A program made the translations under genes and the position numbers. This document shows, one piece after another, positions 1 to 35,614 of a stretch of 35,614 bases of DNA. The DNA is from a virus. Position 1 is the stretch's first letter; every line of letters begins with the position of its first letter. The notes under the pieces were generated by a model, which was not told where the DNA came from, did not search any database, and worked only from the letters and a program-made list of their open reading frames with translations. The stretch lies in the UHGV virus genome UHGV-0227898. One strand, written 5' to 3'.

Positions 1-2778
1 ATGTCGGTACCCAACCAGACGCCCTATATTATTTATAATGCCAACGGTCTGACGACCGTTTTCCCGTTTGAGTTCTATATCATCAACGCCGGTGATATTC
101 AGATAAGTATCAACGGTACCGTAGTTACCAGCGGATATTCTGTTACAGGCGTCGGGAACATCGGAGGAGGTGATGTTACGTTCCTTACGCCACCAGCAAG
201 CGGGAATGTGGTAATGCTGGAGCGTGTTGTCCCAACCTACCGCCTGACCGATTACCAGGACAACGGCGATCTGCTGGCCGACACGGTAAATAAAGACTTT
301 GACCGCCTCTGGATGGCTATCCAGCGTTCTTTTATATATCTTGGGCTGGCATTGCGCAGACCGTTGCTGGGTGGTCCGTTTAATGCAGAAGGGTATCGGA
401 TTGCAAATCTGGGCGAGCCAGTTGATAGCCAGGATGCCGCCACCAAAAATTATGTTGATCAGGTTGGTCAAACAAATCTAAATCGCGTAATTCGCGTACC
501 TGAAAGCTACGTTAATCCGGTACCGACAGTAGCCGCACGTAAAAACATGGTGTTTGCCTGGAATGGTGACGGCAACCCAATCGCTGTTCTCCCGCAGTCA
601 GGTTCGGCATCTGATGTCATGATTGAATTGGCAAAACCAACAGGGACGAACTTGATTGGGTATGGCAGTGACATCCTGACTAACTCGATAAGCCGGACAC
701 TAAAATCATTTGGTGCAACGGGTGATGGGTCTGCTTTGGATAATATCGCCGTCATTCTTGCTGATGCCTGGAGTATTTCATCTGGCAAACCGGTAATTGT
801 AACAAACGGGCAATATAAGCTGCTGAACGTACAACTAGGTGGTGAGTATTGGTTCGATAAAGATGCATGGTTTGTTAACGAAGCATTAGGCGCAACTGAC
901 AATATTGTAATCGCCAAGCCCGGATTAAAGCTGAGAGGTTGGAACACAAGGGTAGGATGTGCGGCCTGGCCTACCAGTGGGAACTACGGGAATGCGCTAC
1001 TCGTTGGTTCTTACTATCAACCCGCAGATGATTCCGGGCTTGTTAATGACATTGAGATCTATGACTTTACAATAGTAGGAACGACGACTGCCTTTAGTGG
1101 CCAGGCAATGGAAGGTCTGGGGAACATTGATGGTGTTAAGGTTAAGCGCGGCAAGTGCATAGGGCAGGGTACAGGGATGCTGTTCCATTGGGGTGGTGAT
1201 GTTGATTTGTCCAACCCGCATACAGGTACTGTTACTTATAGCCATCACCCGAGAAACATCGAAGTCGAAGATGTTCAGTTCCTTAGCTCAGACGGGGTTA
1301 CTCCCCGGGCAATCGGTCTTTATTTCAGTGCTTGCTATAATGTAAAAGCCCATAATATTTATGGTGAAAGATGCCCAGCACTTATTAGCGCTAAGCCAGG
1401 TGATGTTTATGATCAGGTGGCTGTAGCTCGCGATAAAGGGAAAGTGCACACAGGCATTGATATTGACAACTGTTATTCAAGACTGCCTCCTGACACGAGC
1501 AGTTCAATGATCGCCATTACCGGTGTTCCTGATACCTATCGTACATCTTCAACACGACTATCTGCACTTGATCCTGCCTCACCTTCAGAAATTACTGCTA
1601 ATAACATTACAGTAGATCTCGGAACAACAGCATATACGAACCCAATGATTCTTGTCCGTGGCGCCAAAAATGTAAAAGGTTCATTTAATGTTGTTGGCGG
1701 TAAAAACACGGTGAATCCATGGGCGTTAATAGACTACACGGTGAAGTCGAAAATAAGGTTTTCAGGTTCGTGTCCTGGTGGAGTGCAGTCTCGTGGATTT
1801 GGGTCTTCAATATCTGAGCATGCTCAGCATTGTGATGAATCAGTTTCTTACTCGTCAACTATGGTCGGCTTCAAACCACAAACCTTTACCCAAACTGGTA
1901 TTACGCTACAGTCTGCTGTAGCGGTAGGCAATACATCAGTCAGTGTTCAGGCAACAGCAGACTCCATAATTTTTTACGGTGCCATGCTTTACAGTGGATC
2001 CGTCTACATAGGTAAAGTGACCAGAACAACCTGGCTCATCGCCGGAGTGACAAACACCATTCCAGTGACTAAGTCAACTAGCGCCGTATCCTCTGGGTCA
2101 GCAATTACGTCGTATCTTACTTCTGAAGGACTTAAGGTAACCGGCACAATTTCCGGTTTTATGTACAACGTTCAGTCAACCAACACGTGGGGTATTGATT
2201 TCGCCGTCAACATTGAAAGAGGGTATCGCGGAGGAATTCTTTGTGATGGAACATACTGTCGTTCTGCTAAGTTCTCAGGCTCTTACGATGGGGTTGGCTG
2301 GGAGGATGGGGCAGCAGTAAATGCAAATATCCATGTGACGGCAACAACTGTAAGAAACGTTACCATTAACGGGTGCAGATTTGACGCTGACGAAACAAAC
2401 CCTACCATCGACATCCATGTTCTGGTATCAACGACAGATCACGCTGGTGTTATTATTTCAGAGAATACCGGGACAGTTCCAAGCGCCGTTGCTTTCAGTA
2501 TTAGCAACTCGACAGTTGCAGAAGCGTATTCCATGCAGCAGATATATGGTAACCATATAAATGGATTGCAGGCACCAGTGGCCACAGCCACCGGAATGTA
2601 TGTTGGTGGTTATTTCCGTGGCGTGGTTAGAAACAATGCTGTCCCTACTACAGGATACTGGAATGTAGGTGACAAAGTAGACAGACCTAGTATATCAACT
2701 GGTGGGCAAGAGGGGTGGGCCTGCACAGTCGGTGGAAGCCCTGGAACGTGGGTTGGGTATGGGGTTATAGGGTCATAG
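1..2778 (+). CDS. Tail fibre / tailspike: T7 gp17-like N-terminal tail-adaptor domain fused to a long beta-helix (pectate-lyase-like) C-terminal domain, probably a polysaccharide/O-antigen depolymerase receptor-binding protein
   Basis: 925-aa ORF from ATG at position 1. N-terminus (FPFEFY..., RLTDYQDNGDLLADTV..., GYRIANLGEPVDSQDAATKNYVDQ) aligns by eye with the T7 gp17 N-terminal domain (IPFEYL..., RLVDFTDGSIL..., GRRIVNLANAVDDRDAVPFGQL). Remainder is Gly/Thr/Ser/Asn/Val-rich as in beta-helix tailspikes. Confidence 0.75.
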   Translation: MSVPNQTPYIIYNANGLTTVFPFEFYIINAGDIQISINGTVVTSGYSVTGVGNIGGGDVTFLTPPASGNVVMLERVVPTYRLTDYQDNGDLLADTVNKDFDRLWMAIQRSFIYLGLALRRPLLGGPFNAEGYRIANLGEPVDSQDAATKNYVDQVGQTNLNRVIRVPESYVNPVPTVAARKNMVFAWNGDGNPIAVLPQSGSASDVMIELAKPTGTNLIGYGSDILTNSISRTLKSFGATGDGSALDNIAVILADAWSISSGKPVIVTNGQYKLLNVQLGGEYWFDKDAWFVNEALGATDNIVIAKPGLKLRGWNTRVGCAAWPTSGNYGNALLVGSYYQPADDSGLVNDIEIYDFTIVGTTTAFSGQAMEGLGNIDGVKVKRGKCIGQGTGMLFHWGGDVDLSNPHTGTVTYSHHPRNIEVEDVQFLSSDGVTPRAIGLYFSACYNVKAHNIYGERCPALISAKPGDVYDQVAVARDKGKVHTGIDIDNCYSRLPPDTSSSMIAITGVPDTYRTSSTRLSALDPASPSEITANNITVDLGTTAYTNPMILVRGAKNVKGSFNVVGGKNTVNPWALIDYTVKSKIRFSGSCPGGVQSRGFGSSISEHAQHCDESVSYSSTMVGFKPQTFTQTGITLQSAVAVGNTSVSVQATADSIIFYGAMLYSGSVYIGKVTRTTWLIAGVTNTIPVTKSTSAVSSGSAITSYLTSEGLKVTGTISGFMYNVQSTNTWGIDFAVNIERGYRGGILCDGTYCRSAKFSGSYDGVGWEDGAAVNANIHVTATTVRNVTINGCRFDADETNPTIDIHVLVSTTDHAGVIISENTGTVPSAVAFSISNSTVAEAYSMQQIYGNHINGLQAPVATATGMYVGGYFRGVVRNNAVPTTGYWNVGDKVDRPSISTGGQEGWACTVGGSPGTWVGYGVIGS

Positions 2779-2784
2779 CATAAA

Positions 2785-2800
2785 AGCCCCGAAAGGGGCT
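2785..2800. terminator. Hairpin agcccc-gaaa-ggggct between the convergent tail fibre and acyltransferase genes. On the minus strand it is followed by a U-tract, so it is a factor-independent terminator mainly for the minus-strand cassette
   Basis: Perfect 6-bp stem with GAAA tetraloop. Reverse complement is followed by ttttatgc. Overlaps the acyltransferase stop codon. Confidence 0.6.
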
Positions 2801-3876
2801 TACATGAATCGTTTTATAAGATTTGGGTTTTCAACGTACTCAGATGCTTTATATGCAAACGCTAACGCAATAACTACGGCGCATAATGCTATGGGAAGCG
2901 CGCTGTAGAATCCGCCCATAACCCTGCTTTCAAATATGCCGATCATAAACATAATAATTGGATAATGGACGATATAAAGCGTATAAGAGTATCTGGAAGA
3001 TGATGGGATAATGTTTATTCTTATATTCATGCACAGAATAAACAGATAAGTTAGTGAGGCAAATGTAAGGCCAAACCACATATTATACATAGTGTAATCA
3101 CCGCCGCTTACGATGAAATTCGAGCCGTTAGCAAAGGCGAACCACGAAGTTATTGCGGTTAAAACGCATGCAATTGCAACATGCATTTTTCCTTTTGCCT
3201 CAATCAGTGAGAGCACAAGCCCTGCAAACCATACGGAACCGAATATCATGAATTTTATATTTGCACCTGAAATTGCATATGCCAGAATAAATGCCAGTAA
3301 TATATAAAACGGCCTCTTTGTAAAAAGCAAGGCTGCTAAAACGTAATACCATGCTTCAAATGGAAGACTCCATAGTGGGGTATTGAAAGGCGTACCTTGG
3401 GGAAGTAGGCCGTTAGTGAAAGTCAGAACAGAGAGTATCTGTGACGGCCAATAGAAGATACCTCTACCTTTAATGAACTCATCCACAGTTGTCGAGAATT
3501 TCTGTGCGCCAGATTCAAAAACATACGGCGCTATTTGAGCCATTATCAAAATGATGATTAATGAAAGAATCAATGGTGGATAGATTCGATGAAAGCGACT
3601 GATTGCATATTCACTCATAGAAAATGAGCCATTGCGGGAAATATTATTCTGAATCGATACTCCGATTAGATATCCGGACATGACGAAAAATATCATGACA
3701 CTCGACTGAGCAATTAGGCCAACCGTTCGATACCATTCTGGATGGTATCTTGCAAGGATGAACTGGAATGTGTGGGCAAGAAAAACGGCAATTGCAGCGA
3801 TTCCTCGCATGGATTCAAGAGAAACTTTTTGGTTTTCAGTTATTTTTTTCATATTCCGTAAACAATAACGGCGCAT
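2800..3876 (-). CDS. Integral-membrane acyltransferase family 3 (OafA/Oac-like O-antigen or polysaccharide O-acetyltransferase); lysogenic-conversion candidate
   Basis: 358 aa, about 10 hydrophobic helices. N-terminal signature SLESMRGIAAIAVFLAH (RGxAA...H) typical of Acyltransferase_3. AT-rich codon usage unlike neighbouring phage genes. Confidence 0.8.
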   Translation of the reverse strand: MRRYCLRNMKKITENQKVSLESMRGIAAIAVFLAHTFQFILARYHPEWYRTVGLIAQSSVMIFFVMSGYLIGVSIQNNISRNGSFSMSEYAISRFHRIYPPLILSLIIILIMAQIAPYVFESGAQKFSTTVDEFIKGRGIFYWPSQILSVLTFTNGLLPQGTPFNTPLWSLPFEAWYYVLAALLFTKRPFYILLAFILAYAISGANIKFMIFGSVWFAGLVLSLIEAKGKMHVAIACVLTAITSWFAFANGSNFIVSGGDYTMYNMWFGLTFASLTYLFILCMNIRINIIPSSSRYSYTLYIVHYPIIMFMIGIFESRVMGGFYSALPIALCAVVIALAFAYKASEYVENPNLIKRFM

Positions 3877-3934
3877 AAGCGCCGTGCAAATAAAAACAAG
3901 GTGTCCAATTTATATCATATTTGTGAGGTTATCA
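3877..3934 (-). other. Intergenic hairpin (cggcgc-ttat-gcgccg on the transcribed strand) between the dioxygenase-like gene and the acyltransferase gene
   Basis: Perfect 6-bp GC stem at 3910-3925 followed on the minus strand by a T-rich stretch. Could be an attenuator or mRNA stabiliser within the two-gene cassette. Confidence 0.35.
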
Positions 3935-4753
3935 TCACAAAAATGCCAAAGAATACTCGTAGCGATCACCATTTTTCCTAATGATGGCATTGTCAATTAA
4001 TCCAGTTTTGTTCAGGGCATCGTAGGCATCCGGGGAGAATGTTACCTTACCCGTTCTGCTCATAGCAGGGCCGCATGGGGATTTACCAGCGATAATGTTA
4101 GCCTTATTACGATCGATGTACTCCATGACAAGAACTGCACGTAGTCCCGCCGGCTCTTCATATAACCCTCTGTGCAAGCATGCGGTATCGAACATGGCTA
4201 TATCACCAGATTTATAGGCCAGCTTAACTTGGTTATCTGCATTCTCGATGTCACGCTTACCAACAAATCTAGCAATTTCGCTCTTGCGAGGGGTATAGGG
4301 CTTGTTGTAGCTGTTAGGGATTACTACCGTTGGTGTGTTTCCATTTCCTTCAAAACACACGTAGATCTTGATTCGGTGCCCTACGTTATCATCATGCCAG
4401 GAGTTTGAGAGGCTCCACTCCTGTCGCTTATCCGGGTCGTACCAAAACAGATAGATATCATCGAGGCGAGTATCCTCGCCAAGGAAACTAACAATTTTTT
4501 CTTTGAAATCGGTTGTGATTTTTGCAGCTAACTCTCCAATCTCGCTTTCAATATCATTGCTGCGCGCGACGCCTTGAGGGCTGTATTTTTCTGGGTACCC
4601 TAACGCGAATGGAGTGAAATAGCTTGGATGGAATTCCGCTCCAGCCCATTTAGTATGATCGACCTTCTCATCCATGCGCCGGATTGTGGATGTTATCTGT
4701 TTTTTATGCAGCCAGTTTTTAAGAGAGAATGCGACTTTCCTTAGACTCTTCAT
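3935..4753 (-). CDS. Putative Fe(II)/2-oxoglutarate-dependent dioxygenase of the PhyH-like type (function unknown), co-oriented with the acyltransferase
   Basis: 272 aa. WHDD (His-x-Asp) then LHRG His about 73 residues later and an Arg 10 residues after that (LRAVLV), matching the HxD...H...R facial triad plus 2OG-binding Arg spacing of PhyH-family enzymes. No TM segments. AT-rich. Confidence 0.4.
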   Translation of the reverse strand: MKSLRKVAFSLKNWLHKKQITSTIRRMDEKVDHTKWAGAEFHPSYFTPFALGYPEKYSPQGVARSNDIESEIGELAAKITTDFKEKIVSFLGEDTRLDDIYLFWYDPDKRQEWSLSNSWHDDNVGHRIKIYVCFEGNGNTPTVVIPNSYNKPYTPRKSEIARFVGKRDIENADNQVKLAYKSGDIAMFDTACLHRGLYEEPAGLRAVLVMEYIDRNKANIIAGKSPCGPAMSRTGKVTFSPDAYDALNKTGLIDNAIIRKNGDRYEYSLAFL

Positions 4754-4831: not shown

Positions 4832-4847
4832 GGTCGGGATTCCGACC
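4832..4847. repeat. Copy 1 of the perfect 16-bp palindrome GGTCGGGATTCCGACC, 54 bp upstream of the holin start in the divergent region between the accessory cassette and the lysis cassette
   Basis: Exact match to copies at 23368, 33582 and 35515. Conserved 5' flank T-GG. Confidence 0.9.
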
Positions 4848-4901
4848 GCCAGCCCCCCTTACTCTCACGGAACAAAACAAACTTCCCTCTGGGGGTAAGG
4901 T

Positions 4902-5138
4902 ATGAGGATGAACAACCTTTCAGACGCAGCGGCGGGGCTGTCGTACGGCACATCTATTGGCAGCTTTGGTTACTGGCTGCTGCAACTTCTCGATAAAGTG
5001 AGCCCAAGTCAGTGGGCTGCTATTGGGGTACTCGGTAGCCTCTTATTGGGTTTGCTCACCTACCTGACAAATCTCTATTTCAAAATCAAAGATGACCGTC
5101 GAAAAGAGGCTCGGGACAATGGCTACCAGCAAAACTAG
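4902..5138 (+). CDS. Class II holin of the phage 21 S21 pinholin type with dual-start motif (Met1-Arg2-Met3, antiholin/holin)
   Basis: 78 aa. The sequence ...[58 protein letters not shown]... is near-collinear with S21 as I recall it (...[57 protein letters not shown]...). Two TMDs, the first Gly/Ser-rich. MRM start. Confidence 0.85.
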
Positions 5139-5658
5139 GCTCAGCGCTGCTGTTTTGGGGCTGATTCTTGCTGGCGCTTCTGCCCCGCAAATCCTCGATC
5201 AGTTCCTGAATGAGAAAGAGGGTAACAGCCTCACTGCGTACAGAGACGGGGGCGGCATCTGGACAATTTGTCGTGGCGCCACGATGGTTGATGGCAAACC
5301 GGTGGTGCAGGGCATGAAGCTGACGCAGGCGAAATGCGACCGGGTAAATGCTATCGAACGGGATAAGGCTCTGGCCTGGGTTGACCGGAATATAATGGTG
5401 CCGCTGACCGAACCGCAGAAAGCGGGTATTGCTTCGTTCTGCCCGTACAACATCGGCCCCGGTAAATGTTTCCCCTCAACGTTCTATAAGCGTATCAATG
5501 CCGGCGACCGTAAAGGTGCATGCGAGGCGATCCGCTGGTGGATTAAAGACGGTGGCCGCGACTGCCGGCTGACCAAAGGCCAGAAGAATGGCTGTTATGG
5601 TCAGGTTGACCGCCGGGATCAGGAAAGCGCACTAACGTGCTGGGGGATAGACCAGTGA
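5119..5658 (+). CDS. SAR (signal-anchor-release) endolysin, T4-lysozyme-like muramidase of the P21 R21 type
   Basis: Start chosen at ATG 5119 (AAGAGG 10 nt upstream), not 5092. N-terminal Gly/Ala-rich weak [18 protein letters not shown]. Catalytic E-x8-D-x5-T triad in [20 protein letters not shown]. Overlaps the holin 3' end as in the phage 21 cassette. Confidence 0.85.
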
Positions 5659-6017
5659 CCATTAAATCGAAGTTGTTAGCGCTGGCCGTTCTGCTGGCGC
5701 TCTTTGCTGGTACGTATTATGCCGGTTACCTGAAAGGCTGGTATTCACACAGCGACAAAGTAAACAGCGAGCATAAAGCGAAAAACAAAAAGGCTGAGAA
5801 AGCCGTCGCCACTAGTGAGCAGAAAGCGGCAGCGGCCAGCGCAGAAGGCAGGGTGATTTACCGGACCATTTACCGAGACGTGGTGAAATATGTTAACGAC
5901 CCGAATCATATTAAGTGCAATTTTGACGATCACGCTGTGCAGCTGCGCCAACGAGCTCTCGATGCGGCCAACTCCATCAGCGGATTTGATGCAGGAGCCG
6001 TGCAAGGGAGCGAGTAA
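5637..6017 (+). CDS. Rz-like i-spanin (inner-membrane spanin subunit)
   Basis: N-terminal TMD KLLALAVLLALFAGTYYAGY, then a charged, coiled-coil-like periplasmic part. Position directly after the endolysin. Start may be GTG 5655 (GGGGGA SD). Confidence 0.7.
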   Translation: MLGDRPVTIKSKLLALAVLLALFAGTYYAGYLKGWYSHSDKVNSEHKAKNKKAEKAVATSEQKAAAASAEGRVIYRTIYRDVVKYVNDPNHIKCNFDDHAVQLRQRALDAANSISGFDAGAVQGSE

Positions 6018-6132
6018 AGCTGGAACAGACAGCGACGAAGACCTGCAAGCGGACATCGAAACAGCGGAATGCCTGCGCCAGTTACGGCTGGATAAATATC
6101 GTTGGCAAGCTTGGTACAGGGCTACAGAATAG
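5890..6132 (+). CDS. Rz1-like o-spanin lipoprotein, +1 frame, overlapping (not fully embedded in) the Rz gene and extending 115 bp past it
   Basis: Signal peptide plus Cys-containing lipobox-like LTITLCSC, Pro-rich mature part. Frame overlapping Rz. Confidence 0.6.
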   Translation: MLTTRIILSAILTITLCSCANELSMRPTPSADLMQEPCKGASKAGTDSDEDLQADIETAECLRQLRLDKYRWQAWYRATE

Positions 6133-6163: not shown

Positions 6164-6276
6164 TGATAGCGAGTTGGTTGTAAGTGTATGTATTTTAGGT
6201 GTTGTAATTTTGCGCTATGTTCGGAAAAAATCCATAATGCATTGATTGTTCTAGTTTTAACAACCAATTTAAAATC

Positions 6277-6322
6277 CCTCGGCGTTCGCGCTGTGTGGGT
6301 TCAAGTCCCACTCCGGGTACCA
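6277..6322 (+). other. 3'-terminal fragment of a tRNA gene (T-arm GTGGG-TTCAAGT-CCCAC, acceptor 3' strand TCCGGGT, discriminator A, CCA): attP/att core carrying the tRNA 3' end
   Basis: Canonical T-stem/loop and ACCA end at 6295-6322. No D-arm or anticodon arm upstream (AT-rich phage DNA), so only the 3' part is present, as in phages that integrate into tRNA genes and rebuild the 3' end. Confidence 0.55.
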
Positions 6323-6363
6323 TGGGAAACAAAGAATAATCAAAGCAATAAGCAGTGTCGTGA

Positions 6364-6387
6364 AACCACCGAAAGGTGGTTTTTTTG
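6364..6387 (+). terminator. Rho-independent terminator (aaccacc-gaaa-ggtggtt-TTTTTTGTT) downstream of the tRNA fragment
   Basis: 7-bp stem, GAAA loop, T6 tract. Expected position of a reconstituted tRNA terminator. Confidence 0.7.
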
Positions 6388-7907: not shown

Positions 7908-8090
7908 TTAATTCTGATTACGCTTAATCAGGTTATCTTTCAGAAACGCGCCTTTCTCGCGTGTAACCTTGACGTTCTCCGGAAGATGTAACCCCAACTC
8001 ACTGCGGCTACAAGCTTCGATGATCCCGTTTGTTCCATCAGGAAACACCACGTGTACCGCATCACCTCTTTTGAGAGTCAGTTTCAGCAT
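7908..8090 (-). CDS. Hypothetical 60-aa early protein
   Basis: ORF tightly packed between neighbours, ATG start 2 nt after the upstream stop. Confidence 0.45.
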   Translation of the reverse strand: MLKLTLKRGDAVHVVFPDGTNGIIEACSRSELGLHLPENVKVTREKGAFLKDNLIKRNQN

Positions 8091-8092
8091 GA

Positions 8093-8653
8093 TTAGCGTA
8101 CCTGTAATGAACGTTCGCTGACTTCCAGATGCGCACCCGGTACCGGATTAAGCAACTCTTCCGGTACCTCACCACCATCGGCTTTGATCTGTTCCGCTGC
8201 TGCCTCGGCTGCCTCTATCCTTTCTTTGATGGCCTTCTTGTCAGGGGCGATTACCGTCTGAACTGTGACCACTTCATCAGGCAAGGCGTCAAGGTTATCG
8301 ATCACAACGCTTACTGAACCCTGACGAGCGGTAAAGGTGTTTCTGGGGGTTTTCAGCTTATCCAGTCCAGCACCTAACAAGCATGACAGAATGTACTTGC
8401 GGAGGTGCTTGTCTTTATTTTCGAAAGACTTTTTGCGTTCAGCCAGACGCTTCATTTCTTCGTCACAGGTTTTCGCGTTGCCCAGGTTATTACGCGCCAC
8501 CACCATAACTGCATCCAGGCGATCGGCCAGCTCACCTTCAATCCCTTCCAGGGTGTCGGCGATCATTTCCGGCGTCAACTCGTCAGAGGTTTCCAGCAGG
8601 TTTAACAGGCTGGAGTAATCATTTGCCAATGCGATTGCGGTTACCTTGCTCAT
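8093..8653 (-). CDS. Acidic coiled-coil early protein, possibly Siphovirus-Gp157-like (partner of the annealing protein)
   Basis: 186 aa, very acidic, predicted long helices. Located directly downstream of the Rad52-like gene with 4-bp overlap. Family assignment from memory only. Confidence 0.3.
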   Translation of the reverse strand: MSKVTAIALANDYSSLLNLLETSDELTPEMIADTLEGIEGELADRLDAVMVVARNNLGNAKTCDEEMKRLAERKKSFENKDKHLRKYILSCLLGAGLDKLKTPRNTFTARQGSVSVVIDNLDALPDEVVTVQTVIAPDKKAIKERIEAAEAAAEQIKADGGEVPEELLNPVPGAHLEVSERSLQVR

Positions 8654-10875
8654 GCTGTTTTCTCCTGGGTTTTGTTCAGTTCTTTCAGACGTTCGTCTTT
8701 GATGGTGGTCAGGCGACGCAGGCGTTTACTCAGGTAATTAGCATGCTGGCTGTCGCCTTTAGCCTCAGCATCTTTACGGTGCACCTCCACTTCACGGGCG
8801 ATAGATGCGAATACTTTTGTAACTTCGTTGGCAGAGACACCAGTTGCCAGCGTGTTTGCCACCCGTGTGAGTTTGTCGTCCAGTTCCTGACGCAGACGTG
8901 CAGCATCTTCTGCGTTATCGCTGGCGTTTTTAAGGGCGAATTCTTCTTTATTTTTCTGCCGATATTCAGGGTTGTCATAGAGACCCATAAAGATATCGGC
9001 GCTGAAACCGAGGGAAGAGAGCGCCTTTTTGGTCGCATCGGTAAGTGATTTTTTAGTCGCTTCGCCGTCGCAAATTGGGCCGTGTTTACTCCCGTAGATA
9101 TACTGCGTACAGCCGAAAGAGATCTCTTCTCCGCGTTCACCGTTACGCACATACCAGAGGCGAATCTTAATGACGTGGTGTTTTTCTGTGAGATATCCTC
9201 CGACACCGTTTGGAATAAGTTCCCATGTATTATTCCCGTCCGGTCCTTTTACGATGCGGGTTATTGGTGCGCCATCATCAAAACGCTCCTCAAGGATATC
9301 AACGCCCCAGCCAATACCTTTCGGGCCGAATTCCCGGGTGGCCAGCATCGTCATATATGTGCCGTTGATCGATGTACCGCCACCGTTAACACTAAACTGC
9401 TTGGTAAAACGCTCATCGGTTTTGAAAACGCGTTTCCAGAGAGCAAGGTTTTCCAGTTCTGTGCCGGTGCGTTCGGAGAGGCTCTTTTCAACGTCATTAA
9501 CGTTAGGGCGTGGCTCATCTTGCACCTGATGGGCTTCTGGTTGCTCCGCGACTTTATCTTGATCGCTGCTGTCCAGCTCCTGATTTGATTCACTGGCGTA
9601 AACGCTGTAGCCCATTTTATTGAGCGTTTCACGCGCGGCTTCTGCCTGTGAATCAGTAACCACTTCCACTTTTTCCACCTCATTTGAGGCGTTCTGCGCT
9701 GTGGTCTGAGTTTCTGTTTTTACCCATTTGGGATCGGTAGGGTCACTGATACCGTCAACATACTCGCCACGCCCAGCGGCCAGAGATTTACTGGTTGCTT
9801 CCGAATCATTAGGGCTATGTTCGAACACACCATTTTCGGCAAGCCAACTGTCGATAAAGCGGCGTAATGAATCGGGGAAGTGATGCGTATCTTTCGCTGG
9901 CACATTCTGGATAACGCCAAAAATAGTGTCGCGGGAATATTTGAGGATCTGCTCAGTAGTGCGCAGCGCCATAGACCAGCGCTTAAAGTCTTCCCGGTCT
10001 TCTTCAATGATACGTTCCGCCTGGCGCAGAGCGCTGACAGATACAGTGGTCGCTGGCTCTATTGGCAACAGTGCGAGAGCGATCTCCTGATCCAGAGTGG
10101 CATATGTGTGTTTGTAACCGCGCTGTGGTGCAACCTGAACGTGGGTATTATCTTCCGTGCTGGTGCTGGTGCTGGTGCTGGTGCTGTTCTGAGGCAGCAT
10201 TTCTTCACGTTTGCCCGGGTTGTCAGTCCATTTTTTAATAAACGAGTAAAGCGCGGCGCCGCCGGGTAACTGGTTCTCAAACTTCACATAAATTGCCTGC
10301 AGGAGATTATTAAGCCCCTCCTGGTGCATGTAGTGAACAGGTGGGTGCGCTTCCATCGCATTAATGATGTAACGATTTAAGCGATCATCCTCCTCGTCAC
10401 CGTACTGGCTGGTGTTTTCGAGATTATCAAGATAGTCACAAACCTGAGAATAAATCTCCCCATCCAGCTGGGCGAGGCCAAATAACACCACCGTTGCGAA
10501 GCGTTCGCGCGGCGAAATAGTCATGAAGTCTAATTTTTCATCATTGTCAGGAAGGTGGCTCATCCCGCCAGTTGGTTCGGCGTTTGCCATCCACTTTTCG
10601 CCATCGAACGTATGGGACTTAGCAAAGTGCTCGTCAAACTTGCCGATCTCCGGGTGAGGCTGATCAGCTGTGTTTTCCCATATTTCAGGTTTAAAGAAGT
10701 TATCGCCGTTCGCCGGATAGTGCTCCCAGAGCTTACCCGTCACGATGCTTTCTGCGATTTTTTTGTTGGGTGCTTCCACGCTGATCGCCAACGCAACGGC
10801 ACCATCTTTGATGGCCGATTTTTTCGGCTTAAACAGGCAGTTGTAAACTGAGATTGTCACTTGGTCTTTCCTCAT
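8650..10875 (-). CDS. Large early protein (about 740 aa) whose C-terminal 250 aa is a Rad52/Rad22-family single-strand annealing domain; N-terminal 450 aa of unknown function; contains a (Ser-Thr)5 repeat and a long acidic linker
   Basis: C-terminal segment FSVNGGGTSINGTYMTMLATREFGPKGIGWGVDIL...ISFGCTQY... has the Rad52/22 hallmark (FGP.GxGWG). The true start may be GTG 10860, since ATGAGGAAAGACCAAGTG contains the conserved RBS cassette. Confidence 0.6.
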   Translation of the reverse strand: MRKDQVTISVYNCLFKPKKSAIKDGAVALAISVEAPNKKIAESIVTGKLWEHYPANGDNFFKPEIWENTADQPHPEIGKFDEHFAKSHTFDGEKWMANAEPTGGMSHLPDNDEKLDFMTISPRERFATVVLFGLAQLDGEIYSQVCDYLDNLENTSQYGDEEDDRLNRYIINAMEAHPPVHYMHQEGLNNLLQAIYVKFENQLPGGAALYSFIKKWTDNPGKREEMLPQNSTSTSTSTSTEDNTHVQVAPQRGYKHTYATLDQEIALALLPIEPATTVSVSALRQAERIIEEDREDFKRWSMALRTTEQILKYSRDTIFGVIQNVPAKDTHHFPDSLRRFIDSWLAENGVFEHSPNDSEATSKSLAAGRGEYVDGISDPTDPKWVKTETQTTAQNASNEVEKVEVVTDSQAEAARETLNKMGYSVYASESNQELDSSDQDKVAEQPEAHQVQDEPRPNVNDVEKSLSERTGTELENLALWKRVFKTDERFTKQFSVNGGGTSINGTYMTMLATREFGPKGIGWGVDILEERFDDGAPITRIVKGPDGNNTWELIPNGVGGYLTEKHHVIKIRLWYVRNGERGEEISFGCTQYIYGSKHGPICDGEATKKSLTDATKKALSSLGFSADIFMGLYDNPEYRQKNKEEFALKNASDNAEDAARLRQELDDKLTRVANTLATGVSANEVTKVFASIAREVEVHRKDAEAKGDSQHANYLSKRLRRLTTIKDERLKELNKTQEKTA

Positions 10876-10878
10876 TTG

Positions 10879-11067
10879 TTATGCTGCGTTGGTCTTGCGC
10901 AGCTTGTTACGAAGAGATTCAATTTCTTTCTGCAAATGGCGAACTTGTCGTTGGTGCTGAAAGAACGTTACATATCGACCGTTCTTCTGCTTTTCCATGC
11001 AGTCACCAAACTCACCACGACGATCTCCGACAGTGCATGTGTAACGAACTATTCCCATCTCTTTCAT
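10879..11067 (-). CDS. Hypothetical 62-aa early protein
   Basis: Strong RBS GAGGTGAT-CGA-ATG. Confidence 0.5.
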   Translation of the reverse strand: MKEMGIVRYTCTVGDRRGEFGDCMEKQKNGRYVTFFQHQRQVRHLQKEIESLRNKLRKTNAA

Positions 11068-11076
11068 TCGATCACC

Positions 11077-11400
11077 TCAGAACGGAATATCACTTTCCTG
11101 GATTGTGGAATGGTCGATGCACAGCAGCTGTTGGATCTTGTCTTCGATGAAAGCGACGCGCTGGTGCGCCTGGTCGACAATTGACGCCTTTTCTTTCTGG
11201 AGGCGTTCAACCTGTTTACCGATAATGTCGATCGGTTCCGGCTGGTTTATTTCAAGGCAAACAGTGCGCGTTTCCAGGAGCACGTAAAGATCCGGATAGT
11301 TCTGTGACATGTCACAGGTATGAACCAGATAAAGTGCAGGGACGTGGGGGTTAGCAGATACGTGGATGTACAGTGTTACCTGCAGGGGTAGCGCTTCCAT
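11077..11400 (-). CDS. Hypothetical 107-aa protein, first gene of the leftward early operon
   Basis: RBS TAAGGAGCCGCT-ATG. Follows a roughly 400-nt structured leader. Confidence 0.55.
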   Translation of the reverse strand: MEALPLQVTLYIHVSANPHVPALYLVHTCDMSQNYPDLYVLLETRTVCLEINQPEPIDIIGKQVERLQKEKASIVDQAHQRVAFIEDKIQQLLCIDHSTIQESDIPF

Positions 11401-11829: not shown

Positions 11830-11881
11830 GTGCAAAATACTCGTAAAAATAATATTTTTTATATGTGTATGATAAATAAAT

Positions 11882-27056: not shown

Positions 27057-27057
27057 C

Positions 27058-33581: not shown

Positions 33582-33597
33582 GGTCGGGATTCCGACC
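33582..33597. repeat. Copy 3 of GGTCGGGATTCCGACC, 3 nt after the gp16-like stop and upstream of the small terminase
   Basis: Exact 16-mer. Confidence 0.9.
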
Positions 33598-33615
33598 TTA
33601 AACCCGCGCCATCAT

Positions 33616-33644
33616 AGCCCTGTATTCACTACGGGGCTTTTTTT
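33616..33644 (+). terminator. Terminator-like hairpin (agccctgta-ttcac-tacggggct, 9 bp with one G-U) plus T7 tract that runs directly into the terS ATG; sequesters the GGGG SD
   Basis: Seen directly; T-tract 33638-33644, ATG 33645. Confidence 0.55.
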
Positions 33645-33986
33645 ATGCATCAGGATTACAAAACACGCCTTACCGCTCTGAGCGATAAACTCACCGACGT
33701 GGTGCTCGAAGAAGCCGATCCGGATAACTGGCCGGGGGCGGGAAAGAAACCGAGCGAGCTGACCAAAGACGAACGCGGCGACCGCTACTGGGATAAGAAA
33801 AACGCAGCTGCATCGTTGACACTGCTGATTAAGGTGCATTCACTTATCGGCATGCAGACGCGGGGCGGGACACCCTCTGATAACCCTGGTCAGGATGATG
33901 AAGCCTTTGCACTGGGCCAGCAGGTTTCGAAGGCTGAGCGCGAAGCGGCCGCAATTATTGAGCGACTGCAGAAAGGCAAAAAATGA
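33645..33986 (+). CDS. Terminase small subunit (T7 gp18 position)
   Basis: 113 aa, immediately upstream of and overlapping (ATGA) the large terminase. Confidence 0.55.
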   Translation: MHQDYKTRLTALSDKLTDVVLEEADPDNWPGAGKKPSELTKDERGDRYWDKKNAAASLTLLIKVHSLIGMQTRGGTPSDNPGQDDEAFALGQQVSKAEREAAAIIERLQKGKK

Positions 33987-35593
33987 TTTCGTTCCTCGCC
34001 TTCTTTCTGATGTGGGCGGAACGGATGCAGTGGAATGTACCGGACTGTCACTATAAGGCCTGCCACTGGCTGGAGCATCGCGGAAATCTCGCGGTGCTTC
34101 GCTGTTTCCGTGGGTTCGGTAAATCGACGATTCTCGCTGTCTACAATGCCTGGCGGTATTACTGCGACCGTCAGTACCGTATTTTGCACCAGTCTGAATC
34201 TGATGGTACCGCGTATAAAACCAGCCGTGACACCCAGAACGTTCTGCGCAACCATCCGTTGACTAAAGGCATGCTGCCGGACGGGCAGGGGACGGTAGAG
34301 CAGTGGTGGGTTAATGGCGCGCTGGATTTACGTAACGGCAGCATGTACGCCAAAGGCATTCTGTCTAACGTTACCTCCGCCCGCGCAAATGAATGCCAGA
34401 ACGATGACGTAGAGGTACCCCGCAATATCCAGACGCCAGAGGCGCGTGAAAAGCTGCGCTATCGCCTGGGTGAGCAAACTCACATTCTGATCCCAGGCGG
34501 CCGAAAGCTCTACATTGGCACGCCGCACACGCATGACAGCCTTTATGATGAGGTGGAGTCTATGGGCGCTGACTGCCTAACCATCCGGCTGTTTGAGAAA
34601 GAAAAACGCGTTGAAGCGAAAGACGCCACGCAGCTGCACTACGAGTTATCTTTCAGGCCAGAGTACGTTTTCGCGGGCATCCATAAAGCGGCGCGGCTCC
34701 TGGTCGAAGATGTCGATTATAAAATTACGGCCGGCGGCGTTGAGTTTGCATCGGCGCCGGATACTGTTATCGATTTTTATGCAGATTGCGCCTGGCCTGA
34801 GCGATTCACCCGGGAGGAAATGGAGAATCGTCGTAAAGAAACGCGCACCATTAACGAGTGGGATAGTCAGTATCAGCTGCACAGTAAGCCCGTTGGCGAC
34901 GTTCGTCTCGATCCTGACCGTATTCGTGAGTACAACATCCACCCGCAGATCCGCTATGCGAACCGTACGGCTTCGCTCTGGCTGGGTAACGTGCAAATCG
35001 TTGGCGCTGTCGCCTGGTGGGATGTGGCCACAGGTAAAGTTAAGGCTGATGCTTCGGCGTTCTCGCTGATGCTGACGGATGCAAGAGGGCATTTGTACTG
35101 GCACATTTGCCAGGAGCTTACGGGGGAGTTGGCAGAGTTTGACGATAACGACAAAATCACCGGCGGGCAGGTGGCGCAGATCAAAGAGCTGGTGCTCAAA
35201 TATCAGATCCCGGTTGTATGCGTTGAGGTAAATGGCCCCGGCAGCTTCGCAGGTAAATTGCTGCGTCAGGCGCTCAAAGGTACCGGGTGCGGCGTACGTG
35301 AAGAATTCAGCATCACTAACAAGCAAAAGCGCATCCTTGATGCATTTGAAGCGCCGTTGTCGTCACGGTTCCTGTGGGCGCATACCGACGTGCTAGACGG
35401 CCCTGTCTATGATCAGATGCGGGACTTTAACCCGGCGCTGACCAACCAGCCAGATGACTTTATCGACTCAGGCGCTGGCGCTATCAGTCAGACCCCAGTG
35501 CGTATCGGGAAAGTGGTCGGGATTCCGACCGGGCAGTCGCGCGAACATTGGCAGTTAAGTGACGGAGACCATGAGGTCGAAGTCGATTACTAA
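33983..35593 (+). CDS. Terminase large subunit (T7 gp19-like ATPase/nuclease)
   Basis: 536 aa. Walker A-like GFGKST in the N-terminal ATPase; acidic nuclease-type residues in the C-terminal half; terminal gene of the block. Confidence 0.8.
   Translation: MISFLAFFLMWAERMQWNVPDCHYKACHWLEHRGNLAVLRCFRGFGKSTILAVYNAWRYYCDRQYRILHQSESDGTAYKTSRDTQNVLRNHPLTKGMLPDGQGTVEQWWVNGALDLRNGSMYAKGILSNVTSARANECQNDDVEVPRNIQTPEAREKLRYRLGEQTHILIPGGRKLYIGTPHTHDSLYDEVESMGADCLTIRLFEKEKRVEAKDATQLHYELSFRPEYVFAGIHKAARLLVEDVDYKITAGGVEFASAPDTVIDFYADCAWPERFTREEMENRRKETRTINEWDSQYQLHSKPVGDVRLDPDRIREYNIHPQIRYANRTASLWLGNVQIVGAVAWWDVATGKVKADASAFSLMLTDARGHLYWHICQELTGELAEFDDNDKITGGQVAQIKELVLKYQIPVVCVEVNGPGSFAGKLLRQALKGTGCGVREEFSITNKQKRILDAFEAPLSSRFLWAHTDVLDGPVYDQMRDFNPALTNQPDDFIDSGAGAISQTPVRIGKVVGIPTGQSREHWQLSDGDHEVEVDY
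35515..35530. repeat. Copy 4 of GGTCGGGATTCCGACC, inside the terL coding sequence (encoding VVGIPTG) 63 bp before its stop
   Basis: Exact 16-mer. Confidence 0.9.
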
Positions 35594-35614
35594 CCCTGCC
35601 AGAGGTTCAGCACT

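Follow-up and report, generated by a model that had tools for sequence, protein, structure and literature searches.

Related phages already described are the temperate podoviruses epsilon15 (Salmonella) and BPP-1 (Bordetella), which have no annotated RNA polymerase (RNAP) gene, and YeP4-6, induced Yersinia podophages whose particles have been seen by EM (PMC6548840). The 35,614-nt stretch of viral DNA studied here (UHGV-0227898; "the window") is the entire genome (35.6 kb, circularly permuted) of a temperate podophage that infects Enterobacteriaceae; going by the nearest relatives alone, Enterobacter is the probable host. The first-pass annotation had asked whether the record was a tRNA-flanked prophage or a circular contig. 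The record proved to be a metagenome contig, circular and rotated; a leuZ-bounded prophage of the same architecture (∼35.4 kb, with leuZ repeats at both bounds) is found in E. coli 23GD11002. As that annotation had expected for a circular sequence, the late block runs from terL to the fibre gene across the window ends: terL, fibre, lysis, and int genes lie contiguously in the source contig (ERZ27276173 k141_18464), and the fibre ATG (position 1) lies 21 nt after the terL stop, as in the prophage of E. coli B379, whose junction sequence agrees. Two modules make up this mosaic genome, one for virion, packaging, and lysis, the other an early module in lambdoid style (Table 1), and every ORF >300 aa could be placed in a Pfam or PHROG family or domain. 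The best joint explanation, which we hold to be quite probable, is a temperate podophage of the epsilon15/BPP-1/YeP4 lineage with activator-dependent late promoters for host RNAP.

Table 1. Features of the window, in order of position, with the evidence for each
Feature	Position	Strand	Evidence or remark
Tail fibre/tailspike	1..2778	+	Pfam Phage_T7_tail 2e-10; PHROG tail fibre families
Two moron genes	2800..4753	-	Low-GC patch
Acyl_transf_3 O-antigen-acetylase-like gene	2800-3876	-	Pfam Acyl_transf_3 3.5e-27; PHROG O-acetyltransferase
272-aa protein	3935-4753	-	No function given
Motif copy 5	4832..4875	+	GGTCGGGATTCCGACC-N12-TACTCT; upstream of holin gene
Lysis cassette	4902..6132	+	Holin, endolysin, Rz/Rz1
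Phage-21-type class II holin	4902-5138	+	Pfam Phage_holin_2_1 1.6e-32
Endolysin	5119-5658	+	Pfam Phage_lysozyme 6.8e-24
Rz	5637-6017	+	PHROG Rz-like spanin
Rz1	5890-6132	+	PHROG Rz-like spanin; overlaps Rz
attP core	6267..6387	+	3' 56 nt of tRNA-Leu(UAA) leuZ (6267-6322) and tRNA-operon terminator (6362-6387)
Tyrosine integrase	6449-7501	-	Pfam Phage_integrase, Phage_int_M
Excisionase-like gene	7449-7697	-	Pfam DUF4224
Leftward early operon	7908..11400	-	Small ORFs, Sipho_Gp157, 741-aa protein; Pfam and PHROG
Sipho_Gp157	8093-8653	-	
741-aa protein, RecE-central/YdfE_N region	8650-10875	-	Pfam/PHROG
Immunity region	11798..12723		
Operator-like inverted repeats	11798-11819 and 12441-12462		
pL-like promoter	11829-11801	-	
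Terminator past repressor	11908-11888	-	
HTH-only repressor	11926-12414	-	Without peptidase domain
pR-like promoter	12430-12459	+	TTGACA-18-TAATAT
Cro/YdaS-like gene	12490-12723	+	
Rightward early operon	12789..19116	+	YdaT-like gene first; Pfam, PHROG, TRF
O-like initiator	13448-14473	+	Pfam/PHROG
3.4 x 24-bp repeats in O-like initiator gene	13759-13837		TRF
DnaB helicase	14470-15858	+	Followed by small genes
DUF1367/NinB-like gene	18206-18802	+	
Ref-like HNH nuclease	18814-19116	+	
GC-palindrome element	19228-19258	+	Conserved; kept in 12 lineages
96-aa XRE-fold HTH protein	19272-19562	+	Candidate late activator; AF2 and conservation
Motif copy 1	19533..19566	+	Variant GGTCGGGAAACTGACC-N12-AACAAT; upstream of first late gene
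First late unit	19599..23013	+	159-aa and 76-aa proteins, portal, Bbp19-like, scaffold
Portal	20326-21951	+	Pfam Head-tail_con 8e-119; phmmer to T7 portal 6r21 5.5e-7
Bbp19-like protein	21948-22181	+	
Scaffold	22168-23013	+	
Terminator-like hairpin	23338-23367		Ends first late unit, before capsid promoter-like motif
Motif copy 2	23368..23401	+	GGTCGGGATTCCGACC-N12-AACAAT; upstream of capsid gene
Capsid	about 23534 (true start) to 24445	+	Pfam Phage_capsid_2
Terminator-like hairpin	24464-24482		Just past capsid gene
Adaptor/gp11-like	24503-25066	+	AF2 model; Foldseek to T7 gp11 E 5e-6, TM 0.58
Nozzle/gp12-like	25068-27056	+	Pfam Phage_nozzle above cutoff; PDB "Tail Nozzle" 8ck1_A 7e-101
GNAT	27058-27507	+	
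IVP-B-like	27510-27977	+	T7_gp14 19.4 bits, under cutoff of 27
IVP-C-position protein	27980-30688	+	SLT domain
IVP-D/gp16-like	30688-33579	+	PHROG 342; phiKMV tblastn 4e-7
Motif copy 3	33582..33645	+	Core-N12-CATCAT; overlaps terminator-like hairpin 33616-33638 and T-run
terS-position gene	33645-33986	+	Position only
Large terminase (TerL), T7-type	33983-35593	+	Pfam Terminase-T7_RNaseH-like; PDB 4bij (T7 maturase B) 1.4e-16
Motif copy 4	35515..35548	+	Core-N12-GAACAT; in terL 3' end, upstream of fibre ATG

Within the T7 structural supergroup, the virion, packaging, and lysis module falls in the epsilon15/BPP-1/YeP4 lineage. It encodes a portal, an adaptor of gp11 type and a nozzle of gp12 type, internal virion proteins (IVPs) that are ejected, a T7-type TerL, and a fibre. 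The first 150 aa of the fibre make up an adaptor-binding domain of the T7 gp17 type; the receptor-binding part behind it is variable. In tblastn searches, the portal (epsilon15 6e-38, BPP-1 3e-48), nozzle (3e-47 and 1e-82), adaptor (4e-11 and 1e-7), and fibre N-terminus (epsilon15 tailspike N-terminus, 2e-42) have no match to T7 or phiKMV, and the scaffold matches the epsilon15/BPP-1 side in the same exclusive way in pairwise search. The T7-side tblastn links are limited to TerL (T7 gp19, 2e-19 to 4e-19) and IVP-D, which is in the same PHROG as T7 gp16; portal, capsid, and nozzle are tied to T7 families by reciprocal PHROG cross-hits. On these scores the virion module is far nearer to the two temperate phages than to either T7 or phiKMV.

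The first-pass annotation had described a T7-like podophage, and its observations were partly confirmed and its interpretation partly supported. A podovirus virion module of the T7 supergroup is borne out; "T7-like" is nevertheless too narrow a label for head-tail proteins that match epsilon15/BPP-1. Similarity to T7 proteins was recovered for the portal and TerL, with no other detectable by pairwise sequence, and for the adaptor in its fold; the proposed gp14 counterpart (IVP-B) stays below the family cutoff. Its gene list stands for portal, capsid, adaptor, nozzle, internal virion proteins, TerL, and fibre, whereas terS (E = 0.34 against T7 gp18, hhalign), the "gp6.7-like" gene, and IVP-B are assigned by position or sub-threshold scores. 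Contrary to what had been stated, the late block does not follow T7 order: the terS-like gene and terL precede the fibre, a GNAT gene is inserted, and the gp15-position protein has an SLT domain. The overall genome plan is nearly identical to that of epsilon15.

A strict T7-like phage of Autographiviridae type that recently became temperate, with its RNAP lost or kept elsewhere, would be an unusual evolutionary intermediate, as the first-pass annotation implied. The T7-type TerL, the Phage_T7_tail match, the shared IVP-D PHROG, and the gp11 fold agree with such an origin, which we nonetheless regard as highly improbable, given head-tail matches to epsilon15/BPP-1 at 1e-7 to 1e-82 with no T7/phiKMV BLAST match, and pairwise scores that point to a portal/nozzle/capsid clade with epsilon15/BPP-1 outside Autographiviridae. 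The genome also lacks a T7-type replication module and carries genes on both strands. A tblastn search with T7 gp1 over the window and three relatives found no single-subunit RNAP (best E = 0.34), and complete integrated relatives bounded by att repeats have none. All examined members of this large lineage lack one, and RNAP absence is normal for the epsilon15/BPP-1-related group. Since epsilon15 and BPP-1 share this lifestyle without an annotated RNAP, the gene combination of the window is no oddity. Two earlier conclusions stand: that this is a podophage which integrates, lacks its own RNAP, and has a lambdoid-style early half, and that its late genes must accordingly use host RNAP.

The phage is a new member of a very common, barely described enterobacterial prophage family, already represented by the induced, EM-verified YeP4-6 and hundreds of prophages. 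Identity to YeP4 is 65%-84% for portal, scaffold, capsid, adaptor, nozzle, GNAT, IVP-B, terS-like protein, and TerL, and falls lower in the first protein of the late block, the fibre, and both large IVPs. At 90% identity, the portal cluster numbers 940 members, which come from Enterobacter, Citrobacter, E. coli, and Salmonella, and a TerL relative is encoded on 541 IMG/VR contigs, of which we fetched 80 (TerL 85%-99% identical). E. coli prophage relatives sit at leuZ and dusA.

The early module comprises integrase/xis and a repressor/cro switch in divergent arrangement, together with a leftward operon for recombination and a rightward operon carrying O-like initiator and DnaB. Pfam, PHROG, and TRF matches uphold the int/xis, O-like initiator with iterons, DnaB, and nin-like genes proposed earlier. 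"Lambda-regulated" applies to the architecture alone; the cro region is of YdaS/YdaT type, the repressor is HTH-only, and searches of Pfam, PHROG, and NCBIfam turned up neither N nor Q nor any other antiterminator family. The proposed Rad52-like annealing protein has no Pfam, PDB, or NCBIfam support; for the 741-aa protein, the source-contig record lists YdfE_N, and a partial NCBIfam RecE match falls far under cutoff. Every gene from cro to the fibre lies on one strand, and pR read-through may reach the late genes.

The absence of a T7-type promoter repeat, claimed earlier, is correct as to type, but a conserved late repeat, GGTCGGGATTCCGACC-N12-nAnnaT, is present in five plus-strand copies, before the first late gene, capsid, terS-like gene, fibre, and holin (four exact and one variant, 0.24 expected). 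The 16-bp core is a conserved imperfect palindrome, with no -35 hexamer. The motif is syntenic in YeP4, B379, and 23GD11002 and in prophages of Enterobacter, Raoultella, Serratia, Symbiopectobacterium, Pluralibacter, Rosenbergiella, Sodalis, and Pectobacterium; copy 5 has syntenic counterparts in the relatives L001, L003, and L004. Copies with at most one mismatch number 191 on the plus strand vs. two on the minus strand. Among 181 unique copies, many of them orthologous sites in related phages, so that counts overstate independence, position 30 is A in 97% and position 34 is T in 98%, both downstream and unselected; they correspond to -11 A and -7 T of the sigma-70 -10 element, and the spacer positions in between peak at ≤62%. 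In some lineages the -10 is poorer or shifted (ATGCTG/TGcaagct in L008, L016, and L020). A copy precedes terL by 400-500 nt in 77 of the 80 IMG/VR relatives and another lies at +1500 of terL in all 80; part of the conservation of copy 4 may be protein-driven, since the site lies within terL coding sequence. Consensus sigma-70 promoters are depleted across the late region (four found, 12.4 ± 3.3 expected).

We predict from these patterns that the five motifs are activator-dependent late promoters for host RNAP, and the 96-aa XRE-fold protein is the likeliest candidate activator. Its AF2 model (pLDDT 72) has a Cro/C1-type fold, with weak matches (E = 0.03-0.2) to P22 c2 and restriction-modification controller C proteins. 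Phages of both early-module types conserve the gene 5' of the first late gene, and it adjoins motif copy 1 in every intact relative; motif and protein are both absent from vB_EcoM_APEC, epsilon15, BPP-1, T7, and phiKMV. Under this model, the protein would be made from the far end of the rightward early operon, just upstream of the first promoter, and would activate host sigma-70 RNAP at five dedicated promoters, the palindrome spanning about -40 to -25 and the -10 hexamer following 12 nt on. The gene takes the position of Q in lambda, but the mechanism would instead resemble that of -35-replacing activators. Terminator-like hairpins ahead of the capsid promoter, behind its gene, and at the promoter of terS would split the late block into units, a division like that of T7 although here host RNAP would be used; at copy 3, upstream transcripts could end at the hairpin while new ones begin inside it.

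Late expression mainly by antiterminated pR read-through, in the N/Q style of lambda and with the 16-mers not being promoters, would suit the co-orientation of all genes from cro (12490) to the fibre, the terminator-like GC hairpin directly 5' of the 96-aa gene, and the terminator-like hairpins of the late block. We think it unlikely: besides the lack of a recognizable antiterminator, it leaves unexplained the near-invariant -10-like A and T at fixed distance, and two convergent minus-strand genes with a bidirectional terminator part the lysis cassette from the fibre, so that the cassette needs its own promoter, exactly where copy 5 lies. Less probable still is a role of the 16-mer in RNA, as a hairpin for processing, stability, or antitermination, or as a binding site with no part in transcription, such as one for packaging or replication. 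A 6-bp stem could form from the palindrome, and one lineage (L012) shows a symmetric change (GGTCAG...CTGACC), but common variants (AGTCAG..CCGACC, GGTCGG..CCGAAC) break pairing without compensation, RNase III needs a stem longer than 6 bp, and strand and position are fixed upstream of genes, with a conserved -10-like hexamer 12 nt downstream. The motifs could also be promoters that depend on a host factor, on an alternative sigma of the host, or on a different phage protein; the 96-aa protein would then be a repressor or serve some unrelated role. PHROG 16553, its family, is labelled "transcriptional repressor," the fold-search E-values are weak, and GGGAAAC/GGGATTC loosely recalls, in our reading, ECF-type -35 elements. 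We give this about the same low chance as read-through, since no good sigma-E, sigma-28, sigma-32, or sigma-54 consensus match is visible by eye, and the motif is confined to phages encoding the 96-aa protein next to it.

The attP with tRNA fragment and the phage-21-type lysis cassette were both correctly recognized at first pass. Positions 6267-6322 are identical to the leuZ 3' end in E. coli 23GD11002, where the repeat flanks the syntenic prophage; the phage integrates into the leuZ 3' end via this 56-nt core, restoring the tRNA. Nearly every E. coli genome matches the window because the attP core is the leuZ 3' end. By eye, the endolysin translation has a hydrophobic SAR-like N-terminus and an E-8-D-5-T triad. 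GC falls to 0.39 at 3001-4000, within the moron patch, and epsilon15 has O-antigen conversion genes at the equivalent position.

We found no phage RNA polymerase (RNAP) gene in the window, as the first-pass annotation had stated. With T7 gp1 as tblastn query against the circularised window, Yersinia phage YeP4, and the prophages of E. coli strains B379 and 23GD11002, the best match has an E-value of 0.34 over 38 aa. None of the window's ORFs matches an RNAP family in Pfam or PHROG, and all ORFs of >300 aa have a family or domain assignment. An RNAP gene lying just outside the window within the same element is excluded, since the window is the full circle and the integrated relatives are bounded by att repeats.

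The window starts exactly at the ATG of the fibre gene and ends 21 nt past the terL stop codon. Its joined ends match the terL-fibre junction of an E. coli prophage in alignment. The ENA metagenome contig that encodes the window's tail-fibre protein (ERZ27276173 k141_18464, 35,754 bp) has terL, the fibre gene, two genes on the minus strand, the lysis genes, int, and the leftward early genes in one unbroken stretch. We conclude that the window is the whole phage genome, assembled as a circle and rotated, a circularly permuted contig rather than a prophage with flanks, and that the whole element is inside it with nothing beyond. ARAGORN and Rfam report no tRNA gene and no Rfam match in the 35,614-bp window; the piece of tRNA at attP is below the length that they can recognize. 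In E. coli 23GD11002, a syntenic prophage of 35 kb that lies between leuZ and yecA is bounded by the attP repeat as well. The host is likely Enterobacter, since the nearest relatives of the fibre gene and of the gene for a 96-aa helix-turn-helix (HTH) protein both come from that genus.

Features of the window, with positions and the evidence for each assignment
Feature	Position	Strand	Evidence or description
attP	6267-6387		3' 56 nt of tRNA-Leu(UAA) plus tRNA terminator; found by alignment to prophage junction
Integrase and xis-like genes			early half; xis-like gene DUF4224 (Pfam)
Sipho_Gp157 gene			leftward early region
741-aa protein	8650-10875	minus	RecE-central/YdfE_N region; serine/threonine-rich linker
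Repressor	11926-12414	minus	HTH-only, 162 aa, without LexA/S24 autocleavage domain
Cro/YdaS-like gene	12490-12723
O-like initiator			3.4 copies of a 24-bp repeat (TRF)
DnaB; DUF1367/NinB-like; Ref-like nuclease			further rightward early genes
Portal	20326-21951		Pfam Head-tail_con PF12236, 8e-119, 397.7 bits
Capsid	start ~23534		start by comparison with B379; Pfam Phage_capsid_2
Adaptor	24503-25066		AlphaFold (AF2) model, pLDDT 80; gp11-type by predicted fold
Nozzle	25068-27056		Pfam Phage_nozzle, 33.5 bits (cutoff 27); PHROG 457, 3.6e-10; PDB 8ck1_A 'Tail Nozzle', 7e-101
Protein at internal virion protein C (gp15) position	27980-30688		SLT transglycosylase domain (Pfam), residues 240-338
Internal virion protein D	30688-33579		PHROG 342, 1e-203, same family as T7 gp16
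TerL	33983-35593		T7-type; PDB 4bij, 1.4e-16
Fibre N-terminus			Pfam Phage_T7_tail
Lysis cassette			P21-family holin PF04971, 111.7 bits; endolysin PF00959; Rz/Rz1 (PHROGs)
16-mer copy 1	19533	plus	upstream of first late gene
16-mer copy 2	23368	plus	upstream of capsid gene, directly after terminator-like hairpin
16-mer copy 3	33582	plus	upstream of terS-position gene
16-mer copy 4	35515	plus	upstream of fibre, inside terL 3' end
16-mer copy 5	4832	plus	upstream of holin gene

The list of late genes in the first-pass annotation holds up by homology, apart from the terS-position, 'gp6.7-like', and gp14-like assignments, which are based on position or sub-threshold scores. The portal and TerL match T7 proteins by sequence (phmmer to the T7 portal 6r21, 5.5e-7; tblastn to T7 gp19, 2e-19 to 4e-19), and the portal has reciprocal matches to PHROG 332/449. 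For the adaptor, a link to T7 gp11 is seen not by sequence (hhalign of shallow profiles against the single protein, E = 0.08-0.43, not significant) but by predicted fold: In Foldseek, the model matches the Carin-1 connector (8ck1_E, 1.4e-12), T7 gp11 (7box_M, 5.4e-6, TM 0.58), and the KP32 tubular protein A. For the gp14 position (27510-27977), there is no significant match to T7 gp14 (Pfam T7_gp14, 19.4 bits against a cutoff of 27; hhalign, E = 0.46). Similar shallow-profile comparisons with single T7 proteins gave E = 0.34 for gp18 and 0.3 for gp6.7, also not significant; among the nonmatching hhalign queries, the adaptor alone was rescued by structure prediction. PHROG 457, matched by the nozzle, is the family of T7 gp12. 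PDB entry 8ck1 is from Carin-1 according to its title in Foldseek, and a literature search for 8CK0/8CK1 gave no result.

Among the internal virion proteins, the one at the gp15 position is tied to T7 gp15 by position alone, and a PDB sequence search with internal virion protein D returned nothing. Protein D aligns to its family only from profile position 204 onward and so is without the N-terminal SLT domain of T7 gp16. The presence of an SLT domain on the gp15-position protein and its absence from the gp16-family protein looks like a domain relocation between ejected proteins. An extra 89-aa ORF (23047-23316; PHROG 717) lies between the scaffold and capsid genes, in a gap ~300 nt longer than that of B379, where gene annotation is absent. 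The gene at 21948-22181 corresponds to one named 'Bbp19 family' by PGAP in a relative.

A GNAT acetyltransferase gene (27058-27507), conserved in the family, lies in the virion block, after the nozzle gene and before those for the internal virion proteins. GNAT genes occur at the same position in epsilon15 (gp13), between terL and portal in BPP-1 (bbp24), and upstream of portal in phiKMV (gp28; tblastn with the window's GNAT, E = 0.003). A GNAT of phiKMV-type phages, Rac, is reported to inactivate host RNAP (PMC7552054); Rac may be a different protein from gp28 and unrelated to the window's GNAT, for which inactivation of host RNAP would be a paradoxical role.

By pairwise tblastn, we compared each late protein with T7, phiKMV, epsilon15, BPP-1, YeP4, and vB_EcoM_APEC. 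The portal, scaffold, adaptor, nozzle, SLT protein, and fibre N-terminus match epsilon15 and/or BPP-1 (1e-5 to 1e-82), and none of these six matches T7 or phiKMV. E-values for epsilon15 and BPP-1, respectively, are 6e-38 and 3e-48 for the portal, 3e-47 and 1e-82 for the nozzle, and 4e-11 and 1e-7 for the adaptor; the fibre N-terminus matches epsilon15 at 2e-42. Only TerL (T7, 2e-19; phiKMV, 7e-11) and internal virion protein D (phiKMV, 4e-7) fall on the T7 side, and TerL has no match to epsilon15 or BPP-1. The description 'T7-like' is thus right for a T7-supergroup virion and a T7-type TerL but not for the head-tail core, whose tblastn matches are to epsilon15 and BPP-1 rather than to T7 or phiKMV. 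The window is a T7-supergroup podophage of the epsilon15/BPP-1 branch, with a T7-type terminase, acquired or retained, that lies after the internal virion proteins. Epsilon15, BPP-1, BcepC6B, VP5, and Liberibacter SC1 have already been grouped as a T7-related tail-structure subgroup, and RNAP content can reassort independently of tail genes (Hardies et al., PMC4819975).

A closer affiliation with T7 and phiKMV would draw on several homologous components (portal, PF12236; gp11-fold adaptor; gp12-type nozzle; gp16-family internal virion protein; TerL; and fibre N-terminal domain) and on analogies of layout, namely, a terminator-like hairpin behind the capsid gene and, ahead of groups of late genes, several promoter-like sites specific to the phage. 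Unlike these phages, the window lacks a single-subunit RNAP and has an integrase and a repressor, its terminase precedes the fibre, and its SLT domain is on a different internal protein. It also departs from the single-strand gene layout of Autographiviridae, with a leftward operon (6449-12414) and accessory genes (morons, 2800-4753) on the minus strand. T7 gp4 and gp5 have no tblastn match in the window, where replication genes are instead an O-like initiator and DnaB, and T7-type promoters of ~23 bp are absent. A lambdoid affiliation has the early half on its side: Like lambda, P22, the Rac prophage, and phage 21, the window has a divergent repressor/cro pair, pL/pR-like promoters with operator-like repeats, a leftward int-xis-recombination operon, an O-like initiator with internal repeats, and a NinB-like gene, as well as a phage-21-type holin, an endolysin with SAR-like N-terminus, and Rz/Rz1. 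It differs from lambdoid phages in having no S24 peptidase domain, YdaS/YdaT at the cro/cII positions, DnaB instead of P, and no detected N or Q, and the virion module is not lambdoid. Two other candidates were rejected: The mEpimmI phages (PMC11893012) are siphoviruses, and HTVC019P-type pelagiphages, considered as RNAP-less analogs, encode RNAP.

Placement with epsilon15 and BPP-1 extends to gene order and lifestyle. Epsilon15 (Uetakevirus, with relatives such as phiV10) shares with the window a temperate podophage lifestyle, Enterobacteriaceae as hosts, a genome of ~40 kb, and the absence of any annotated RNAP gene. Its annotated plan resembles that of the window from portal, small gene, scaffold/protease, capsid, tubular tail A and B, GNAT-like gene, internal virion proteins (one with SLT), and tailspike onward through minus-strand O-antigen morons, holin/endolysin/Rz/Rz1, attP, int, leftward recombination genes, repressor, and rightward replication genes. 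Its terminase, however, is P22/Sf6-type and lies before the portal, whereas in the window TerL is T7-type and lies, with the terS-position gene, downstream of the internal virion proteins. The SLT-domain protein of epsilon15 matches that of the window (2e-8), but the capsid, early genes, and non-SLT internal virion proteins are not BLAST-similar. BPP-1 (Rauchvirus) is likewise a temperate podophage without an annotated RNAP gene; it integrates at a tRNA 3' end, has a cI/cro switch, and shares the order portal-Bbp19-scaffold-capsid-tubeA-tubeB-IVP-SLT-IVP-D-fibre, with a GNAT gene also in its late block. Features of BPP-1 that the window does not share are a DGR tropism cassette, an early module of DNA polymerase/primase type (as in YeP4 and B379), and terminase genes that are placed before the portal and not similar to the window's TerL.

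The original observation was largely right and its interpretation right in part: The window is a temperate podophage of the epsilon15/BPP-1/YeP4 type with a lambdoid early module, and a missing RNAP is expected for that kind. An integrating RNAP-less T7-like phage is no longer surprising when its virion module is grouped with those of epsilon15, BPP-1, and YeP4. Temperate RNAP-less podophages of this kind have been known since the 2000s.

A megablast search of the window against the phage collection returned only a YeP4-6 scaffold fragment and generic lambdoid pieces, so that a protein-level search was needed for relatives. The closest cultured relatives are the Yersinia phages YeP4, YeP5, and YeP6 (portal, 79% aa identity), which were induced from lysogens and are podoviruses by EM (PMC6548840). 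Protein identity between YeP4 and the window is 65%-84% over most of the late block. The late block of a dusA-integrated prophage in E. coli B379 has 87.6% nucleotide identity to the window, and the E. coli 23GD11002 prophage (~77% nucleotide identity) shares both the lambdoid early module and the leuZ site. All three have the same late module as the window; they differ from it in the distal part of the fibre and in the moron genes, and the ORF at 23047-23316 is extra in the window. The portal cluster at 90% identity comprises 940 members, drawn from Enterobacter, Citrobacter, E. coli, and Salmonella; in IMG/VR, 541 contigs encode a TerL relative, and the 80 that we fetched are 85%-99% identical. 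The window thus belongs to a frequent prophage family and is not an oddity. The family is very common across Enterobacter, Citrobacter, E. coli, Salmonella, Klebsiella/Raoultella, and Serratia, yet is without a name; most genes in its members' gene tables are 'hypothetical', and the structural and regulatory map presented here should aid prophage annotation.

A single late module, which begins ~45 nt ahead of the 96-aa HTH gene, is found with either of two early modules that are not related to each other: the lambdoid O/DnaB type in the window and 23GD11002, and a DNA polymerase/DUF2800/DUF2815/VapE primase type with a LexA-like repressor in YeP4 and B379. Integration sites differ as well (leuZ, dusA). 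This is clean modular exchange at a fixed junction in the YeP4-like family, which combines an epsilon15/BPP-1-type head-tail core with a T7-type terminase and swaps its late module between early modules.

The main added value of the analysis lies in a late promoter-like motif and its candidate activator, which together provide an inferred, cheaply testable model of late control. The first-pass annotation had reported no T7-type promoter repeat; none exists, but the 16-mer GGTCGGGATTCCGACC, an imperfect palindrome, recurs in the late region (four exact copies and one variant, all on the plus strand, versus 0.24 expected in the repeat search). Together with a sigma-70-like -10 element, it is the only late-region repeat family. 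T7 promoters, by comparison, are continuous from -17 to +6. Syntenic copies of the motif are in the relative sequences L001, L003-L012, L016-L022, and L026-L105, among them YeP4, B379, 23GD11002, and prophages of eight other enterobacterial genera. Among the 80 IMG/VR relatives, it occurs 400-500 nt before terL in 77 and at +1500 of terL in all 80, and most also have a third copy after the fibre. Orientation is strongly biased, with 191 plus-strand and two minus-strand copies at one mismatch or fewer.

Across 181 unique copies, downstream position 30 is A in 97% and position 34 is T in 98%, whereas spacer positions peak at no more than 62%; neither position played a part in the motif search. 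Such a pattern is characteristic of the -11 A and -7 T in a sigma-70 -10 hexamer (nAnnaT), here located 12 nt after the 16-mer, which would then span about -40 to -25, in place of the -35 hexamer. Consensus sigma-70 promoters are depleted in the late half (17000-35614; four versus 12.4 ± 3.3 in shuffles) and as frequent as expected in the early half (22 versus 22.0 ± 4.3). Variants of the 16-mer are mostly noncompensatory, which favors DNA recognition over an RNA hairpin. Consensus sequences for sigma-54, sigma-28, sigma-32, and sigma-E, compared by eye rather than in a formal test, gave no convincing match, and a literature search with the 16-mer found only unrelated PCR primers. The late block has terminator-like hairpins ahead of the putative capsid promoter, behind the capsid gene, and across the putative terS promoter (33616-33638), and these would split it into units. 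At 33582-33645, the motif overlaps the last of these hairpins, which with its T-run ends at the ATG of the terS-position gene. With the predicted start for terS inside the hairpin, upstream transcripts would stop there and locally initiated ones would not. This hairpin is kept, with base changes, in the B379 and 23GD11002 prophages.

In phages of both early-module types, the 96-aa protein (19272-19562) is conserved just ahead of motif copy 1. In its predicted structure (pLDDT 72), the HTH fold is of Cro/C1 type; among the nearest solved structures are the P22 c2 DNA-binding domain and controller C proteins of restriction-modification systems, at weak E-values of 0.03-0.2, and the PHROG label of its family is repressor. 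Small XRE-fold proteins of this kind bind palindromes as dimers. The protein and the 16-mer occur together in YeP4, B379, and 23GD11002, and both are absent from vB_EcoM_APEC, epsilon15, BPP-1, T7, and phiKMV. With a likelihood approaching even, we infer that the 96-aa protein is the activator of host RNAP at the five putative promoters, which lack a -35 hexamer. Its genomic position is that of lambda Q, but it would act more in the manner of an activator that replaces the -35 element. T4 MotA at middle promoters, C proteins, and lambda cII offer a mechanistic analogy only: Those systems likewise have a conserved site over the -35 region and a sigma-70 -10 element at fixed spacing, but the candidate activator has no sequence homology to them beyond the generic HTH fold. 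Just upstream of the 96-aa HTH gene lies another conserved element, CTCTATGCTCGCGCGyGCGCGCGTTTwGG (19228-19258), a GC palindrome with a T-run. It is at the same place in L001, L003-L007, L009-L012, and L020, even in phages with unrelated early genes before it, and may control the candidate activator as a terminator/attenuator, an operator, or a promoter (TATGCT).

A bolder reading, somewhat less likely than not, is that the lineage runs a T7-like late layout wholly on host RNAP through an undescribed pair, an XRE-fold activator and a 16-bp -35-replacing site. Separate promoters would then serve the head-assembly, capsid-tail, packaging, fibre, and lysis units, with the terminator-like hairpin after the capsid gene. 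If true, the family would be a tractable E. coli/Enterobacter model for promoter-per-module late transcription in temperate T7 relatives, and a compact orthogonal activator/promoter pair would be gained.

In the early region, a pR-like promoter (TTGACA-18-TAATAT), a pL-like promoter, and a terminator after the repressor gene are present, and repeats common to the pL- and pR-like regions are putative operators. A cI/cro-type divergent switch and an O-type initiator with internal origin repeats are thus both found, and the cro and cII positions (12490-13235, plus strand) are filled by YdaS- and YdaT-type proteins, as in the Rac prophage. Since the repressor lacks an autocleavage domain, induction may require an antirepressor or another route; YeP4 and B379 carry LexA-family repressors instead. 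No early ORF matches N or Q families in Pfam, PHROG, or NCBIfam, searches that took in part of the small unannotated ORFs in the 11400-11800 gap. ORFs 6188-6571, 11416-11781, 12478-12907, and 12659-12898 were rejected as spurious, since they overlap attP, regulatory DNA, or the better-supported cro gene. The 741-aa protein has a region like the noncatalytic middle of RecE (NCBIfam, 85 bits, far under the cutoff), a YdfE_N domain on record, and the PHROG label 'exonuclease'; a PDB sequence search was empty, leaving the Rad52-like C-terminus of the first-pass annotation without support there.

In the lysis cassette, a P21 S-family holin with two transmembrane domains, an endolysin with a hydrophobic SAR-like N-terminus and an E-D-T triad as read from the translation, and spanins make up what appears to be a phage-21-type set. 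Between the fibre and lysis genes lies the low-GC (0.39) moron pair. One encodes an Acyl_transf_3 O-antigen-acetylase-like protein and the other a 272-aa protein that has no family match but contains, by eye, a WHDD...H motif suggestive of a 2OG/Fe(II) oxygenase. By analogy with epsilon15, the pair are likely lysogenic-conversion genes.
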